Of a stretch of DNA of 53,991 bases, positions 7,940 to 47,687 are shown piece by piece. Below the pieces are notes generated by a model that saw nothing but the letters and a program-made list of their open reading frames with translations, was not told where the DNA came from and searched no databases. The translations under genes were made by a program, and so were the position numbers. The stretch is taken from NCBI GenBank assembly GCA_002773095.1, contig PFCG01000029.1:1-53991 (forward strand), in the 5' to 3' direction. Source of the DNA: Candidatus Moranbacteria bacterium CG10_big_fil_rev_8_21_14_0_10_35_21 (GTDB lineage Bacteria; Patescibacteriota; Minisyncoccia; Moranbacterales; UBA2206). How positions within the stretch are numbered: position 1 is the first letter of the stretch; the number at the start of each line of letters is the position of its first letter.

Positions 7940-9259
7940 ATGAGTGATAATATTTATGATAAATTAGCTGACGAGGTAGATAAAATAGATAAAAAAAGTG
8001 TTAAACAGTCAGATGATATGAATGACACTTCGGAAAAGCCATCTGTCATGGCCGCTTTGCTCTCAGAAAATCAGACTTCTCTTCCAGCAGTAGGTGATAG
8101 TATTATTGGAGAAATAATTGATATTGCTGCTAATTCAGTTTTTGTAGGTATTGATCCTTTCGGAACTGGAATTGTTTTGGGCAAGGAAATTAAAGATGGA
8201 ATGGGAACTGGAAAATTGAAAATAGGGGACAAAATTTCTGCCGTTGTGATTGACCAAGAAAATGATGAAGGTTTTATTGAACTTTCTATTCGAGAAGCTT
8301 CTTATGAGAAAGCCTGGGATAATTTGGAAGATAAGCGTGATTCTGAAGAAAAAGTATTTACTAAAGTTCTAAGCGCCAACAAAGGAGGTCTTTTAATTGA
8401 ATTGAATGGAATTTCCGGATTTTTACCAGTTTCTCAATTATCCAGCAAAAATTATCCTCGCGTAGAAGACGGAGATAAAAATAAAATATTTGCTATCTTG
8501 AAAAAACTAGTTGGGCAAGAATTGGAAGTGAGAATCTTGGATGCCGATCGAGAAACTGAAAAATTAATCGTCAGTGAAAAAGCGGCTCAAAAAGAAAAAG
8601 ATCGAGAAACAGTTTCCAGTTTAAAAATTGGAGATGTAGTAGAGGGAGAAATTAGTGGAGTAGTTGATTTCGGAGCTTTCATTAAGTTTGTGGCTCCTGG
8701 TAAAGACCCAGCTAAGGTAGCGGATGATAAAAAGCTAGAAGGCTTAGTACATATTTCCGAACTAGCTTGGCAACTAATCGAAAATCCTCGCGATGTGGTT
8801 AAGGTTGGCAGTAAAGTAAAAGCCAAAATAATTGCCATCGATGATTACAAAATTTCTCTTTCTATCCGAGCTTTGGAAAAAGACCCTTGGAGTGAAGTTG
8901 ATAAAAAATACAAAGTAGGAGACATCGTAGATGGTACTGCTCACAAAATAAATCGCTTTGGAATTTTCGTTTACTTAGATCAGGATATTCATGGTCTAGC
9001 TCATATTAGCGAAATGGCTGAAGTTTATCCTGGAAAAAATCTAGATGAGTTGGTTAAAGCCGGAGAAAAATATTTATGGAAAATTCTTTCCGTTGAACCA
9101 GCTACTCATCGTATGGGATTGGTTCTGGCTAAGAAAGGTGATAAAAGCGCGCCAGCTAAAAAAGAAAAGGCAGTGAAGGAAGAAAAAGCCACTGAGAAAA
9201 AAGCTGAAAAGAAACCCAAAAAAGTATCCAAGAAAAAAGTAGAGAAAGAAAAAGAATAA
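7940..9259 (+). CDS. rpsA: 30S ribosomal protein S1 / S1-domain RNA-binding protein (4 S1 repeats)
   Basis: NKGGLL..GFLPVSQL, DFGAFI..EGLVHISEL, GLAHISE; Lys/Glu-rich tail. Confidence 0.88.
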   Translation: MSDNIYDKLADEVDKIDKKSVKQSDDMNDTSEKPSVMAALLSENQTSLPAVGDSIIGEIIDIAANSVFVGIDPFGTGIVLGKEIKDGMGTGKLKIGDKISAVVIDQENDEGFIELSIREASYEKAWDNLEDKRDSEEKVFTKVLSANKGGLLIELNGISGFLPVSQLSSKNYPRVEDGDKNKIFAILKKLVGQELEVRILDADRETEKLIVSEKAAQKEKDRETVSSLKIGDVVEGEISGVVDFGAFIKFVAPGKDPAKVADDKKLEGLVHISELAWQLIENPRDVVKVGSKVKAKIIAIDDYKISLSIRALEKDPWSEVDKKYKVGDIVDGTAHKINRFGIFVYLDQDIHGLAHISEMAEVYPGKNLDELVKAGEKYLWKILSVEPATHRMGLVLAKKGDKSAPAKKEKAVKEEKATEKKAEKKPKKVSKKKVEKEKE

Positions 9260-9274
9260 TCACTTAGCTTATAA

Positions 9275-9305
9275 AAAATACTCCAGCGCTTTGCTGGAGT
9301 ATTTT
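9275..9305 (+). terminator. intrinsic terminator after rpsA
   Basis: AAAATACTCCAGC/GCTGGAGTATTTT hairpin. Confidence 0.7.
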
Positions 9306-9321
9306 ATTATATCCAAAAAAT

Positions 9322-9500
9322 TTCAGCCTTACGAAAGACTCAGGAACAAATTCAGCTGAAACGAGCGTTAAAAAAAACTCCTCACCAATTCAGCCATGGG
9401 CTGACTAGGAGTTTTAGCGAGTGAGGCTTTGAATTTGTCTGAGACTGAGTCCGGCTGACAGTTTTCTTTGCAACTTTCTTTTGCTACCAAAAGAAAGTTG
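9322..9500. repeat. structured intergenic element, copy 1 (candidate ncRNA or MITE-like repeat)
   Basis: Nested stems and a terminal 12-bp hairpin; homologous to 46314-46507. Confidence 0.8.
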
Positions 9501-9569
9501 AGAAGAGATTGATTAATTGCCGAATATAAGCTAAATTACATATAATAATCATAGCAAAATAAGCTCTAT

Positions 9570-10145
9570 ATGAAAAACTCTAATATTTTTATTATTTCTG
9601 GACCTTCTGGGGTTGGAGAAGATTCTATTATCAATGGTCTTACTAAATACTTTCCTATTGAAAAAATAGTCACCACTTCTACCCGTCCAATGCGCTCCAG
9701 AGAATCCCAAAGCAATCCTTACTATTTTATAGATAAGCAAGAATTTGAAACCAGAAGAGAGAAGGGGGATTTTATTGAATGGGCAGAACAATATAATGGT
9801 CAGCTGTATGGCGTAACCAAACAGGAGATTGAGCGAGTGAAATCCGTCAGCCGACGGACCGATAAAATCGGCACCTGGAAAATAGAATGGAAAGGGGTCA
9901 TTACTGCTAAAAAACTTTTTCCGGAAATTCCGGCTATTTTTATTACCATTCCAGATTTGAAAATCTTGGAAGAGCGCATCCGTCGCCGAGATAATATTAA
10001 CGAAGCCTATATTAAAGAACGTATGGCCTATACTCAAGAATGGATGAAACATGCTGATGTTTATGATTACACAGTGGTGAATGAAGAAGGAAAATTGGAT
10101 GAAGCGATTAAAAAAGTGGCAGAAATTATTAGGAAATATATTTAA
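9570..10145 (+). CDS. gmk: guanylate kinase
   Basis: SGPSGVGE P-loop variant, TTSTRPMR..E, YYF, FIEWA..YG. Confidence 0.88.
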   Translation: MKNSNIFIISGPSGVGEDSIINGLTKYFPIEKIVTTSTRPMRSRESQSNPYYFIDKQEFETRREKGDFIEWAEQYNGQLYGVTKQEIERVKSVSRRTDKIGTWKIEWKGVITAKKLFPEIPAIFITIPDLKILEERIRRRDNINEAYIKERMAYTQEWMKHADVYDYTVVNEEGKLDEAIKKVAEIIRKYI

Positions 10146-14064: not shown

Positions 14065-14141
14065 GGACACGTAGCTCAGCTGGTTAGAGCGTTTCCTTGA
14101 CATGGAAAAGGTCAGAGGTTCGAGTCCTCTCGCGTCCACCA
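14065..14141 (+). tRNA. tRNA-Val (GAC)
   Basis: Cloverleaf: anticodon arm TTTCC-TTGACAT-GGAAA, GGTTCGAGTCC T-arm, encoded CCA. Confidence 0.95.
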
Positions 14142-14162: not shown

Positions 14163-14237
14163 GGGACTGTAGCTCAGTGGTAGAGCGCGCGACTCATAAT
14201 CGCTTGGTCGTAGGTTCGAACCCTACCAGTCCCACCA
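14163..14237 (+). tRNA. tRNA with CAT anticodon, probably tRNA-Ile2 (lysidine-modified)
   Basis: Cloverleaf with GCGA-CTCATAA-TCGC arm; G1:C72 paired, so not initiator; anticodon arm and variable region GCGACTCATAATCGCTTGGTCG resemble bacterial Ile2 tRNAs; encoded CCA. Confidence 0.9.
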
Positions 14238-45141: not shown

Positions 45142-46275
45142 ATGCTTAAAAAAACTTTCTTGATTTCTGCTATTAGCTTTGGGGTGATTTTACTCCTTTG
45201 GGGTATTTATTTTCTATCTTTCCAAAAACCTTCTGTAAAAGACTCTAGTCAAGATGAATCTGAGACTGTTCAGGAGATAGCTGAGCCCATAATTCCTAAA
45301 ACTGGAAAGCTTGTAGCTATTACCGAAGAAGCGGTTTTGGCCCCCACCATCAATGAAACTGAGGATGGTATTAAATATTACAACAAAAATACTGGGCAAG
45401 TTTTTCAGGTTGATTTTGATGGAGACGGCAAAGAAACCCTTTCTAGCAAAGAACTTTCAGGAATTTTAAATATTTTTTGGTCTCCGGATAAAACTAAAGT
45501 TCTTTCTAGAAATAATGTTAATGGCGCCGAAAGATATGGCTACTATTCTTATGAAGAAGTTATGGGGGGACTTTTACACGAAAACATTCAATCCCTTAGT
45601 TGGCAGAACAATAGAAAAATTATTTATTCTTTCTTTAATACGGTAACTAAAAAAGATTCTCTTAATATGGCTGATTATGATGGCGCTAATTGGTCTAAAA
45701 TATCCGACCTAGACTCTTCTTCAATATTTCTAGCGCCTATTCCTAAAACTGGTCTTATTTCTTTCTGGAACGAACCTGATGCTTCCCAAGAATCAAAACT
45801 TTCTTCTGTTCCCACTATTGGAGGAGAAATTAAGATTATTTCCAGTGGAAATTTTGGAGCCGACTATCTATGGAATGAAGATGGAACACTGGCTTTATCC
45901 AGTCATTCTGATTCTAAAAATGGTTTAAAAATGCAATTAGGATCTTTTTCGGCTGACGGATCAAATTATAAGGATTTGGACCTACCAACCTTTATTTCTA
46001 AGTGTATTTGGAAAAATACTCAATCTGTTTATTGTGCTCTTCCTTCATCTATTCCAGAAAATTCCGTTCTTCCTAACAGTTATTACCAAGGGAATTTCAA
46101 TACCACTGATACTTTCTGGGAAATAGATGTTTTAACTGGAGAGAAAAAAAGAATTGTTGACCTAAAAGAAATTAATGGACAATATGATGCTACCAACTTA
46201 TTCCTTTCGCCTGACAAAGGTTTCTTATTTTTCGTCAACCGAACTGACGAAAAACTTTATCGCATAGAGCTTTAA
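45142..46275 (+). CDS. membrane-anchored beta-propeller (TolB-like) protein
   Basis: N-terminal TM helix; WSPDKTK, LSPDKGFLFF repeats. Confidence 0.7.
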   Translation: MLKKTFLISAISFGVILLLWGIYFLSFQKPSVKDSSQDESETVQEIAEPIIPKTGKLVAITEEAVLAPTINETEDGIKYYNKNTGQVFQVDFDGDGKETLSSKELSGILNIFWSPDKTKVLSRNNVNGAERYGYYSYEEVMGGLLHENIQSLSWQNNRKIIYSFFNTVTKKDSLNMADYDGANWSKISDLDSSSIFLAPIPKTGLISFWNEPDASQESKLSSVPTIGGEIKIISSGNFGADYLWNEDGTLALSSHSDSKNGLKMQLGSFSADGSNYKDLDLPTFISKCIWKNTQSVYCALPSSIPENSVLPNSYYQGNFNTTDTFWEIDVLTGEKKRIVDLKEINGQYDATNLFLSPDKGFLFFVNRTDEKLYRIEL

Positions 46276-46313
46276 TCTAAAACTAAACAATCAGCCTATA
46301 TTCAATTAAGTTC

Positions 46314-46507
46314 TTCAGCCTTACGCAGTCTCAGCTATGAATCCAGCTGAAACGAGCGTTTAGAAACTCCTCACCGATTCAGCCATATTTATCCGCCTAT
46401 GGCGGAGGCTGACTTGGAGTTTTGGCGAGTAAAGTTAGGATTCATCTGAGACGGAGTTTGGCTGAGAGTTCTTTTTGTTTACTTTTTCTTGCGGAAAGAA
46501 AAAGTAA
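46314..46507. repeat. structured intergenic element, copy 2 (candidate ncRNA or MITE-like repeat)
   Basis: Homologous to 9322-9500; contains an extra TCCGCC-TAT-GGCGGA hairpin at 46392-46406. Confidence 0.8.
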
Positions 46508-46529
46508 GAAAGAAAAAAAATACTTAGCT

Positions 46530-47687
46530 TTAAAATTTTTTAATACCCATAAAAAAGAAAAGCCAAAAAACAATAGCTAAATCATTTTTAAAATAAGTGG
46601 TATCTACCATTCCATGAATCAAAATGTAAATTAAAATAGCTGTTGATAGGGTCGCCAAAGCGTTTTTATTAAAAACATTTTCGGATGTTTCTTTAATTCT
46701 TAAATAGATCAATCCTAAAAATCCAATTAACCCAGCTAGTCCACTTTGAAGCCAAAAACTCAAAAAAATATTATGGGGATGGGGGACAGCCCATTCTAAA
46801 TAAGGTGGAAAATATTTTTGATACTCTAAATATTTAGTTTGAAAGTTTCCTGGCCCAATACCTAGGAACCAATTATCTGAAATTATTTTCTCGGCAGCCT
46901 TCCATACCATCGTCCGAGAAGATAATGACGAACGCTCGGTAAAATGACTGAAATCATTATACTTATTTTTTCCTGCTTGAGAAAAAATAAATAACAGAAT
47001 AGCTACACCCAGAACAATGCCTATGGCTTTTAATTTTATTTTTTTATTCAGTCTAAGGAATATGATTATCGCTATGAAAACGCTGGCCCAAGCCGCATAA
47101 GAAAAAGTTAGATAAAAAGCTACCAAAATAATTGCTAAAGCAACTCCATATATTTTTTTATTTCTAGTATAAAGACCTACTCCAATTATTAGCGCTGGAG
47201 CTAAATACATCGCTAAATAATTAGGTGAATTGAAAAAAGCTTCCAGTCTTCCATCAAAGGTTATTAAATTAAGGAAAAAATAGCCCAAAGCTAAAGAAGC
47301 TACCACAAAAGAAGAAATAAAATAGCTTAGAAATATTTTTTCTTTTTTAACTTCTGTAATTGCTATGGCTGAAAAAATTATAGGGAACAAAAACCAACCT
47401 TTAATTATGCCTGCTCCAGCTGTATAGTTCTGATTAACCAAAGTGGAGATTAAGAGACCTAAAAAAATTAAAATAACCCAAAAAATATACTTTTTATATA
47501 CTCCTACACCTTTTTTTAAAAAAGCCACTTTATCCTTTTTTTTCAAAAGCCAGACTACAATTAAACTTGTCATAAGCACTTCCAATAAATTAGTAGGAAC
47601 GGAAAAAATATTAAATCGTATCAGATAAGTCGGTAATATTATAATTATGACACTAATTAAATTTTCTAAACTAAGATATTTTTTCAT
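46530..47687 (-). CDS. O-antigen ligase family (Wzy_C) protein
   Basis: F.SPNYLA, LTFS, R...W.....I...W.LGIGPGNF, HPHN. Confidence 0.85.
   Translation of the reverse strand: MKKYLSLENLISVIIIILPTYLIRFNIFSVPTNLLEVLMTSLIVVWLLKKKDKVAFLKKGVGVYKKYIFWVILIFLGLLISTLVNQNYTAGAGIIKGWFLFPIIFSAIAITEVKKEKIFLSYFISSFVVASLALGYFFLNLITFDGRLEAFFNSPNYLAMYLAPALIIGVGLYTRNKKIYGVALAIILVAFYLTFSYAAWASVFIAIIIFLRLNKKIKLKAIGIVLGVAILLFIFSQAGKNKYNDFSHFTERSSLSSRTMVWKAAEKIISDNWFLGIGPGNFQTKYLEYQKYFPPYLEWAVPHPHNIFLSFWLQSGLAGLIGFLGLIYLRIKETSENVFNKNALATLSTAILIYILIHGMVDTTYFKNDLAIVFWLFFFMGIKKF

Follow-up and report, generated by a model that had tools for sequence, protein, structure and literature searches.

A hairpin-forming, recombining intergenic repeat of Candidatus Moranbacteria with relatives in distant phyla

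The genome of Candidatus Moranbacteria bacterium CG10_big_fil_rev_8_21_14_0_10_35_21, a member of the candidate phyla radiation (CPR), contains two similar intergenic segments of about 180 to 195 nucleotides (nt), which raises the question of what they are and why they can fold into the same multi-stem structure. They lie at positions 9322-9500 and 46314-46507 (+ strand) of the window, by which the whole analyzed stretch of 53,991 nt of contig PFCG01000029.1 (assembly GCA_002773095.1) is meant, and they are two copies of one element. The family to which they belong is multi-copy, has kept its fold by compensatory change, is gained and lost between close relatives, includes copies that recombine with each other and crosses phyla. 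The element is clearly a proliferating, recombining repeat. From the sequences compared, the best explanation, given a probability of about 0.45, is that it is a mobile non-coding repeat which may have been kept as a transcript-end module, i.e., a terminator or insulator acting at the RNA level.

The two copies and their fold

Each copy forms one long imperfect hairpin with paired 5' and 3' ends and a separate 12-bp hairpin on its 3' side. The layout of the window copies is a rod-like hairpin of 136 to 151 nt closed by P1 (TCAGCC/GGCTGA), a U-rich tract and the 12-bp pyrimidine/purine hairpin; across the family the rod measures 135 to 165 nt and has five helices. The copies share 82% mean column identity over 246 aligned columns, and the common segments and stems listed in an earlier note, which was made from the sequence alone, were all found in their places by direct reading. 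The minimum free energy (MFE) was -63.3 kcal/mol for copy 1 (z score, -5.46) and -78.1 kcal/mol for copy 2 (z score, -7.58), and none of 200 dinucleotide shuffles equaled either value. A covariance model, R1, was made from 15 aligned copies with the fold of copy 1 mapped on the columns (143 positions, 39 pairs), and it matched copies 1 and 2 with E values of 3e-33 and 8e-30. The motif GAGCGTWAAAAAA N{25,55} TTTTAGCGA was found once in the window, compared with 0.00 expected from 100 shuffles. The model scores and the shuffled motif count exclude chance, so that the claim of a real two-copy element is upheld. Scanning the whole window with R1 gave no copies besides these two.

The pairing was examined in 71 distinct copies from 62 loci of the CPR family. 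Standard pairs occupied 92.6% of the cells, compared with 71.9% after shuffling of the partners and 29.5 to 46.7% after sliding, in an alignment fitted to the model, which favors the pairing figure. Two-sided changes were detected in 30 of the 39 pairs (619 cells). An independent MAFFT/RNAalifold analysis of 15 copies gave two-sided changes in 22 of 28 pairs. In the cross-phylum set, 87.6% of the cells were paired versus 60.3% after shuffling, the helix fixed by the search pattern being left out of this argument. Between copies 1 and 2, 10 of the 39 model pairs differ: five were kept by two-sided and four by one-sided changes, and one involves a non-pair. The differences of copy 2 are mainly compensatory changes in P2 and P3, and its apical hairpin is about 19 bases longer.

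The fold is also strand specific. G-U and U-G pairs filled 169 cells and A-C and C-A combinations 38 cells, or 103 and 37 cells without a near-invariant U.G pair, which is kept in 66 of the 71 copies. On the reverse strand copy 1 scored 21 bits, compared with 135 bits on the forward strand. This wobble excess and the reverse-strand score indicate that the fold belongs to the + strand of the window. The family and cross-phylum alignments thus agree with the multi-stem, covarying structure proposed earlier, and the proposed terminal 12-bp hairpin is present in both copies, with outer pairs that covary among relatives.

The conserved segments that the earlier note had regarded as unpaired turned out to be mostly paired. 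Within GAGCG, the CG is base-paired to that of AGCG, and the near-invariant U.G pair comes next; few conserved bases of the consensus are truly unpaired. The GAGCG/AGCGA helix consists of C-G, G-C and U.G followed by A-U pairs; it is flanked by a G.A mismatch and a small purine bulge, and an A-rich bulge precedes P5. The almost invariant helix of the rod is GAGCGUUAAAAAA/UUUUAGCGA, with a G.A and the U.G pair. The invariant inner module runs in the order GAGCGUUAAAAAA, P5, CUGUUUGA, a small hairpin, GAGUU, P5' and UUUUAGCGAA.

Distribution, mobility and turnover

The source genome (753 kb, 32 contigs, 94.85% complete) contains five full copies, i.e., the window pair and three more, plus fragments. 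Four of the five lose only 0 to 2 model pairs, and the fifth forms 32 of the 39. Copy C5 has CCGTCC/GGACGG as P1 instead, and copy C31 has a different apical part. With the source genome included, R1 matched 39 of the 71 family genomes; among 151 sampled from the order it matched 39 (7 of 12 families), and among 151 sampled from the class only 6, where the matches were weak. The maximum was 22 matches in about 1 Mb. Within the family, all nine genomes of one genus and none of the 14 of another carry the element, and the copy number varied from 3 to 22 within one nine-genome genus.

Closely related genomes differ in their copies. At one locus in six genomes of a nine-genome genus, the element was present in two, absent in three and reduced to a remnant in one. 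In the remnant, about the first nine bases run straight into the final bases of the 3' hairpin, which indicates a deletion and not an empty target. Chimeric copies consist of the 5' half of one subtype and the 3' half of another, with mismatched stems, and at some loci a 5' half copy is followed by a full copy of a different subtype. Several loci share flanking genes across genera. At the locus of copy 2, between a gene without a Pfam hit and a Wzy_C gene, another genus has a pair of elements; copy 2 and its partner of the same subtype differ at 11 of the 39 pairs, of which seven were kept by two-sided and two by one-sided changes and two involve a non-pair.

The earlier note pointed to a likeness to dispersed intergenic repeats of other bacteria, which was correct, and the range is much wider than it supposed. 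Searching one genome per species with the motif given above yielded at least 120 stretches and one IMG/VR contig, and a stricter three-part motif yielded 115 stretches. Matches in metagenome-assembled genomes (MAGs) with CPR titles included Candidatus Moranbacteria/Moraniibacteriota, Parcubacteria, Peribacteria and Gracilibacteria. Other titles included Prolixibacteraceae, Parabacteroides, Lentimicrobiaceae, Sediminibacterium, Ignavibacteriales, Melioribacteraceae, Neomarinimicrobiota and Sulfurimonadaceae, and Breznakibacter xylanolyticus DSM 6779 is a cultured carrier. R1 aligned over its full length with many of these records at 25 to 60 bits, and one phage contig as well as Bacteroidota, Neomarinimicrobiota and Ignavibacteriales gave full-length matches. 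Copies of the CPR type (101 to 107 bits) are contained in two records that bear the title uncultured Bdellovibrionales. Whole-genome searches gave 36 matches in Breznakibacter, 33 in a Prolixibacteraceae MAG, 48 in Neomarinimicrobiota, 41 in a Parabacteroides MAG and 1 in Ignavibacteriales. Two features are added in the cross-phylum copies, a repeat of the same type of helix farther out (GCGUUAAGAAAAUC...GAUUUUUAGC) and a CUGUUUGA...GAGUU loop at the apex, and these copies keep the U tract and the pyrimidine/purine hairpin. The phage contig has two gene-oriented copies, behind the major head gene and a scaffold-like gene.

In Breznakibacter the core is located inside a MITE (miniature inverted-repeat transposable element) unit of about 330 bp. 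This unit has imperfect inverted ends (GGCTCTAT..TGTGGGTAA and TTACCCACA..ATAGAGCC) and 8-bp duplications of T-rich targets (TATTTAAA, AAATTACT, ATTTTTTT). All 35 occurrences of its left end are accompanied by the core. At five sites that have the ends but gave no model hit, the MITE copies carry inserts or have suffered a deletion. No autonomous insertion sequence (IS) with these ends was found among the end-bearing sites. Like MITEs, the element is short, non-coding, present in many copies and without a conserved open reading frame (ORF). A hit to an IS end, which the earlier note had named as grounds for refuting its view, applies in part to one relative, and the CPR copies show no such ends. 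The presence of the core in the Breznakibacter MITE indicates that the element behaves as a mobile repeat and is not simply an RNA gene. Since the inverted ends differ from the core and are lineage specific, the core is internal cargo and not a transposase site. The copies of the Parabacteroides MAG are 85 to 97% identical over 170 to 400 bp and have no gene in common.

Small elements insert into the repeat at fixed places: on the 5' side of P2, at the point where the rod meets the 3' hairpin, and in the hairpin loop. Short GC-rich palindromes (CCCTGCCTRCCGGCAGGCAGG; TCCGCCAGYTGGCGGA; CCCTTGGGGATCCCCTTGGGA) were found at such sites, most often exactly at the junction of rod and hairpin, in relatives (L015, L018, L021, L025, L028, L029, L065) and in Neomarinimicrobiota (L236-L245), and appear to be a distinct class of very small mobile palindromes. 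Nested inserts of about 95 nt (starting with ACGAGCCCTGTCTAACAC...) and about 75 nt (AGCAAAGCTGATTTTTGCAACG...) recur in the Breznakibacter MITE copies, sometimes together, and one copy has a third nested layer (loci L250-L253, L334, L337, L338). In the Prolixibacteraceae MAG (L153; G347:C1:3215512-3217414) the element occurs in tandem arrays in which a whole period of about 880 bp is repeated; this period contains no convincing ORF.

The neighbors of the CPR copies are housekeeping genes encoding S1 protein, guanylate kinase, aminoacyl-tRNA synthetases, UvrA/B/C, RNase J, ribosomal proteins and others. None of the genes found next to the CPR-family copies encodes a transposase, integrase or reverse transcriptase, and no neighboring gene recurred among the CPR loci or at 209 sites in 199 cross-phylum loci. 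Of the 71 CPR-family hits, 53 had a convergent 3' gene, 16 a co-oriented one and 2 none; on the 5' side, 39 had a co-oriented gene, 27 a divergent one and 5 none. The 3' neighbors of the cross-phylum copies showed a weak bias (90 convergent versus 70 co-oriented). Among the 41 lone copies, 18 were antisense and 7 sense between codirectional genes, 11 lay between convergent and 2 between divergent genes, and 3 had no called 5' gene. At 15 loci two different subtypes form a divergent pair with 5' ends about 13 to 35 bp apart, mostly between convergent genes. In one genus the spacer of these pairs, of about 28 bp, is conserved (TTTAAGAAAAAACAATCTTGCATTTTTA) (L065-L071, L041, L046, L056, L060).

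Both window copies lie 3' of + strand genes, as had been noted: an S1-domain gene ends at 9259, and the gene without a Pfam hit ends at 46275 (Table 1). The U tract of copy 1 is able to extend its pairing with 9501-9508, and the 3' hairpin of copy 2 lies just past the stop (46530) of the convergent Wzy_C gene. The hairpin between the S1-domain gene and copy 1 has weak similarity to terminator-like parts of small RNA models and looks like a standard terminator. A small ORF (46422-46580, 52 amino acids) overlapping copy 2 was rejected as a gene, as other copies do not conserve it.

Table 1. Features of the two copies and nearby features in the window
Feature	Coordinates	Strand	Details
Copy 1 rod-like hairpin	9323..9458	+	P1 TCAGCC 9323-9328 / GGCTGA 9453-9458; P2-P5 and apical hairpin within; MFE fold
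Copy 1 covariance model match	9321-9466	+	135.1 bits; 39/39 model pairs formed
Copy 1 conserved inner module	9363..9420	+	GAGCGTTAAAAAA (9363-9375), TTTTAGCGA (9412-9420); helix with G.A mismatch and U.G pair
Copy 1 U-rich tract	9461..9469	+	GTTTTCTTT; begins 3 nt past P1
Copy 1 3' hairpin	9471..9500	+	CAACTTTCTTTT/AAAAGAAAGTTG; 12 bp, loop GCTACC; pyrimidine 5' arm, purine 3' arm
Copy 2 rod-like hairpin	46315..46465	+	P1 TCAGCC 46315-46320 / GGCTGA 46460-46465; MFE fold
Copy 2 covariance model match	46313-46473	+	122.1 bits; 38/39 model pairs formed
Copy 2 U-rich tract	46469..46478	+	TTCTTTTTGT; 3' of P1
Copy 2 3' hairpin	46479..46507	+	TTACTTTTTCTT/AAGAAAAAGTAA; loop GCGGA; A-rich run follows to 46521
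Ordinary hairpin and T run, not the element	9280..9308	+	Ends the S1-domain gene, directly 5' of copy 1; read from sequence
tRNA gene	14065-14138	+	Rfam match
tRNA gene	14163-14234	+	Rfam match

A transcript-end role and competing explanations

According to the proposed mechanism, the element would spread as a non-autonomous mobile repeat and would be tolerated or retained since its transcript folds into a long hairpin with a GC-based stem, followed by U's. Such a structure would end or insulate transcription and protect 3' ends at gene boundaries, and it would work both ways if the rod has an A tract ahead of it. Old copies in the reduced CPR genomes may have turned into fixed transcript-end signals of the neighboring genes, which would explain why the pairing persists at these sites. 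The invariant inner motif is assumed to bind a conserved host factor.

A U tract past P1 (at least 6 T in a 9-nt window) was found in 64 of the 71 copies, compared with 66 of 355 control windows, and the five copies poorest in U have a GC-rich palindrome inserted at the U-tract site. An A-rich tract 5' of P1 was present in 20 of the 41 lone copies and in 59 of the 355 controls. A long hairpin, GC-rich at its base, with U's behind it and often A's ahead of it is the layout of a one- or two-way intrinsic terminator, which supports a transcript-end role. The 3' hairpin has an uninterrupted stem of at least 8 bp in 70 of 71 copies (mode, 12 bp), with a pyrimidine 5' arm, a purine 3' arm and covarying outer pairs. 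In many copies of one genus (L043, L044, L046, L065, L069) a second, partial pyrimidine/purine hairpin is located 3' of the first; it consists of the loop and 3' arm of the hairpin of the other subtype and could provide an alternative pairing for the U-rich arm.

The position of the copies points in the same direction, as gene ends are favored and divergent promoters avoided. The phage copies behind the head and scaffold-like genes are further support, since phages often put terminators or stabilizers behind such genes. Syntenic retention with compensatory change and no detected transposase fits a use at the level of the host. The wobble-tolerant strand also follows the neighboring genes: lone copies with a co-oriented upstream gene had 35 G-U and 6 A-C cells, and those antisense to both neighbors had 24 and 17. 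With a hand-calculated chi-square of about 7 and copies that are related to each other, this support is only suggestive.

Several observations weigh against a transcript-end role. The U tract does not directly adjoin P1 and begins 3 to 4 nt past it. A simple terminator scan called neither window copy, which carries little weight because the ordinary terminator at 9280-9308 was likewise unlisted. Copy 1 lies directly behind that terminator and is hence redundant there. The convergent bias of the 3' neighbors in the CPR family is not predicted by a symmetric terminator, and the overall G-U bias and the near-invariant U.G pair persist even in antisense-embedded copies. The helix GAGCGUUAAAAAA...UUUUAGCGA, often with CUGUUUGA...GAGUU, is kept across phyla, and a terminator needs no such motif. 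The transcript-end reading leaves the invariant inner motif, the overall sense bias, the convergent bias and the redundancy of copy 1 unexplained. As to mobility, no transposase partner was present at the end-bearing sites and none was recurrent at the 209 sites. Around the 41 lone CPR copies the inverted-repeat score was 7.41 (control, 7.46) and the direct-repeat score 7.17 (control, 7.60). The 24 listed sequencing runs containing window positions 8700-10100 are all DNA and none RNA; contigs from 4 runs had the same sequence there, and neither a joint nor an empty site was found among them.

The copies might instead be paralogous genes of independently transcribed small RNAs (sRNAs), each a rod with a U tail, which act in trans or serve as a scaffold or sponge for a conserved protein, with the invariant helix and the purine-rich internal loops as binding sites. 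This is considered somewhat unlikely. It would account for the sense-strand wobble bias with its widely kept U.G pair, for the location of the purine-rich loops on the sense strand, and for the cross-phylum core motif and syntenic retention; a rod followed by a U tract also resembles an sRNA with its own terminator. The 18 lone copies antisense to both neighbors are relevant as well, as a sense RNA would need its own promoter there. However, no conserved promoter-like motif was found family-wide 5' of P1, where the information content is low, and a consensus scan gave no sigma-70-like site 5' of either window copy. The short distance between the 5' ends of divergent pairs, the rise of A-C pairs in antisense-embedded copies and the mobile behavior, truncations and nested inserts are also difficult for this view, and no L7Ae-type protein was found in the source genome and no partner protein is known. 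A purely selfish, MITE-like repeat without a host function, whose covariation comes from gene conversion and from mobilization of only folded or symmetric copies, is an unlikely explanation. The asymmetric internal loops are conserved, and palindrome repair would erase them. The placement is non-random, the inverted ends are lineage specific and unlike the core, and the CPR copies are without ends and duplications, yet four of the five copies in the source genome, where no transposase was detected, keep all but 0 to 2 pairs. A selfish repeat would show the inverted ends and 8-bp duplications of Breznakibacter, copies that are almost identical, as in some genomes, copies that come and go within a genus and number from 3 to 22 there, and chimeric copies indicating recombination between copies.

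That the fold acts as single-stranded DNA (ssDNA), either as an HUH/Y1 substrate (REPIN- or IS200/IS605-like), as an attC-like site or as a single-strand initiation signal, is distinctly improbable. Strand-specific structures with G.T pairs are typical of ssDNA transposon ends and attC sites, the apical length varies like the variable terminal structure of attC, and small palindromes insert at fixed sites of the element. Y1_Tnp-like ORFs were found in 31 of 39 element-bearing and 16 of 32 element-free family genomes, but the source genome and the 22-copy genome G073 have no Y1 match, and the Y1-like genes carry their own, different palindromes and are not adjacent to the element. No cassette arrays or integrase context were found, RYYYAAC/GTTRRRY core sites were absent from the sequences read, and known Y1 substrates are much shorter than this rod of about 60 bp, which has purine-rich loops. 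The orientation of the copies does not flip along two Prolixibacteraceae chromosomes, as that of ssDNA elements linked to replication would, although this is a weak reading; GC skew tracks gene orientation, and a link with the replication strand is not separable from it. Very improbable is an inner module that is a catalytic RNA or the guide or scaffold RNA of an unknown mobility or defense mechanism. In its favor, about 40 nt lying in helices that otherwise covary stay the same between distant phyla and in a phage, different outer shells carry the module, and no known family matches it. On the other side, there was no match to a ribozyme family and no associated protein gene, and the variable parts are base-paired and hence poor guides. 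Judged from the sequences, it is unlikely, though conceivable, that the inner module is itself the functional RNA (a self-cleaving ribozyme or a protein-recruiting or guide RNA), long carried or exchanged among CPR, Bacteroidota, Ignavibacteriota, Neomarinimicrobiota, Campylobacterota and phages in different mobile shells, whose movement or persistence it would enable.

Relation to known repeats and significance

As the earlier note anticipated, no Rfam family could be assigned. At gathering thresholds, Rfam 15 reported only the two tRNAs in the whole window. For copies 1 and 2 the best scores at E values up to 10 were 24 and 20 bits, far under the threshold. The loci of 20 relatives gave only two tRNAs and one L10 leader, all off the element; 17 non-CPR loci gave only Flavo-1, also off the element, and three small loci searched at E values up to 1 gave only miRNA-like hairpin noise. 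Group II intron domain 5, the hairpin ribozyme, the hammerhead core, SRP RNA, ssoA CS-6 (TAGCGA), and kink-turn and loop E motifs were dropped on inspection only. The element was not found in the full-text literature on repeats and structured RNAs of Patescibacteria, CPR and Parcubacteria, or with motif strings, in a search of main texts outside supplements. Nothing related was noticed in passages of the TIGR-Tas paper (PMC12045711) or, by term search, in two 2026 preprints. Annotated phage genomes gave no blastn match to copy 1 or to the phage-contig copy.

The element is thus in no named family tested and is in kind closest to ERIC, Correia and other hairpin-forming intergenic repeats and to MITEs. 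The ERIC/IRU repeats of enterobacteria are intergenic, multi-copy imperfect palindromes of about 130 bp, which are co-transcribed with their neighbors, occupy orthologous sites in related species and have orientation-dependent effects on transcripts. The element resembles them in size, imperfect palindromy, intergenic location, copy number and orthologous sites. However, ERIC belongs to one bacterial group and has a conserved sequence, whereas the element occurs across phyla with compensatory replacement of stems, an invariant inner motif and a 3' hairpin. The Correia elements (CREE/NEMIS) of Neisseria and MITEs are non-autonomous repeats of 100 to 350 bp with many copies, inverted ends and target duplications; they give hairpin RNAs and are able to serve as terminators or processing sites. 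The Breznakibacter units resemble them in copy number, inverted ends and target duplications, but the conserved part of the element is internal cargo, and its ends vary by lineage and are undetectable in the CPR copies. To our knowledge, there is no parent IS for the element.

REP sequences are 20 to 40 nt long, and REP/REPIN-RAYT systems are long-lived, vertically inherited hairpin repeats. Y1/HUH genes with flanking palindromes in many element-bearing genomes are a point of likeness. In total, 47 of the 71 family genomes contain Y1_Tnp-like ORFs (about 190 to 250 amino acids, with an HUH-like NHYH/NHFH motif; maximum, five per genome). Most of the 12 examined (L339-L350) are flanked on one or both sides by their own palindromes of 16 to 20 nt, and these ORFs look IS200- or RAYT-like. 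In contrast to REPs, the element forms a rod of about 140 nt whose internal loops are conserved; it does not neighbor the Y1-like genes and also occurs in genomes in which none was found. The source genome gave no hit for Y1_Tnp, RVT_1, the TnpB zinc ribbon or L7Ae, and the Y1-like genes of relatives are without an element copy. Flavo-1 (RF01705), which lies near one Bacteroidota copy, is likewise a structured, multi-copy RNA of orphan function known from comparative analysis. It matches the element in neither sequence nor structure, and the element exceeds it in size, is found across phyla and has mobile behavior.

Other candidates were rejected. TnpB/IscB omega-RNA, retron and group II intron RNA are not consistent with the lack of RVT_1 and TnpB zinc-ribbon matches in a genome of this completeness or with the housekeeping neighbors. 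Integron attC sites do not fit copies dispersed among housekeeping genes, with no GTTRRRY/RYYYAAC at the ends in the sequences read. For an L7Ae-bound kink-turn RNA, the loops misfit the kink-turn consensus on inspection, and L7Ae is without a match in the source genome. What sets the element apart from the repeats closest in kind is the cross-phylum core, the wholesale covariation among subtypes in one genome, the nested repeats of one helix type and the appended pyrimidine/purine hairpin.

Dispersed hairpin repeats are usually confined to one lineage, and the core of this element spans CPR genomes of <1 Mb, Bacteroidota genomes of 4.4 and 7.3 Mb and a phage. By estimate, from a maximum of 22 copies of about 200 nt each per roughly 1 Mb, it makes up as much as about 0.4% of some tiny genomes. 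With the covariance model, annotators can mask or label hundreds of currently blank intergenic regions, and the cultured carrier, B. xylanolyticus DSM 6779, makes the question bench-testable. Because the copies are located at gene ends and are kept in place across genera, the element may be a major transcript-end signal in organisms in which gene expression has hardly been studied.

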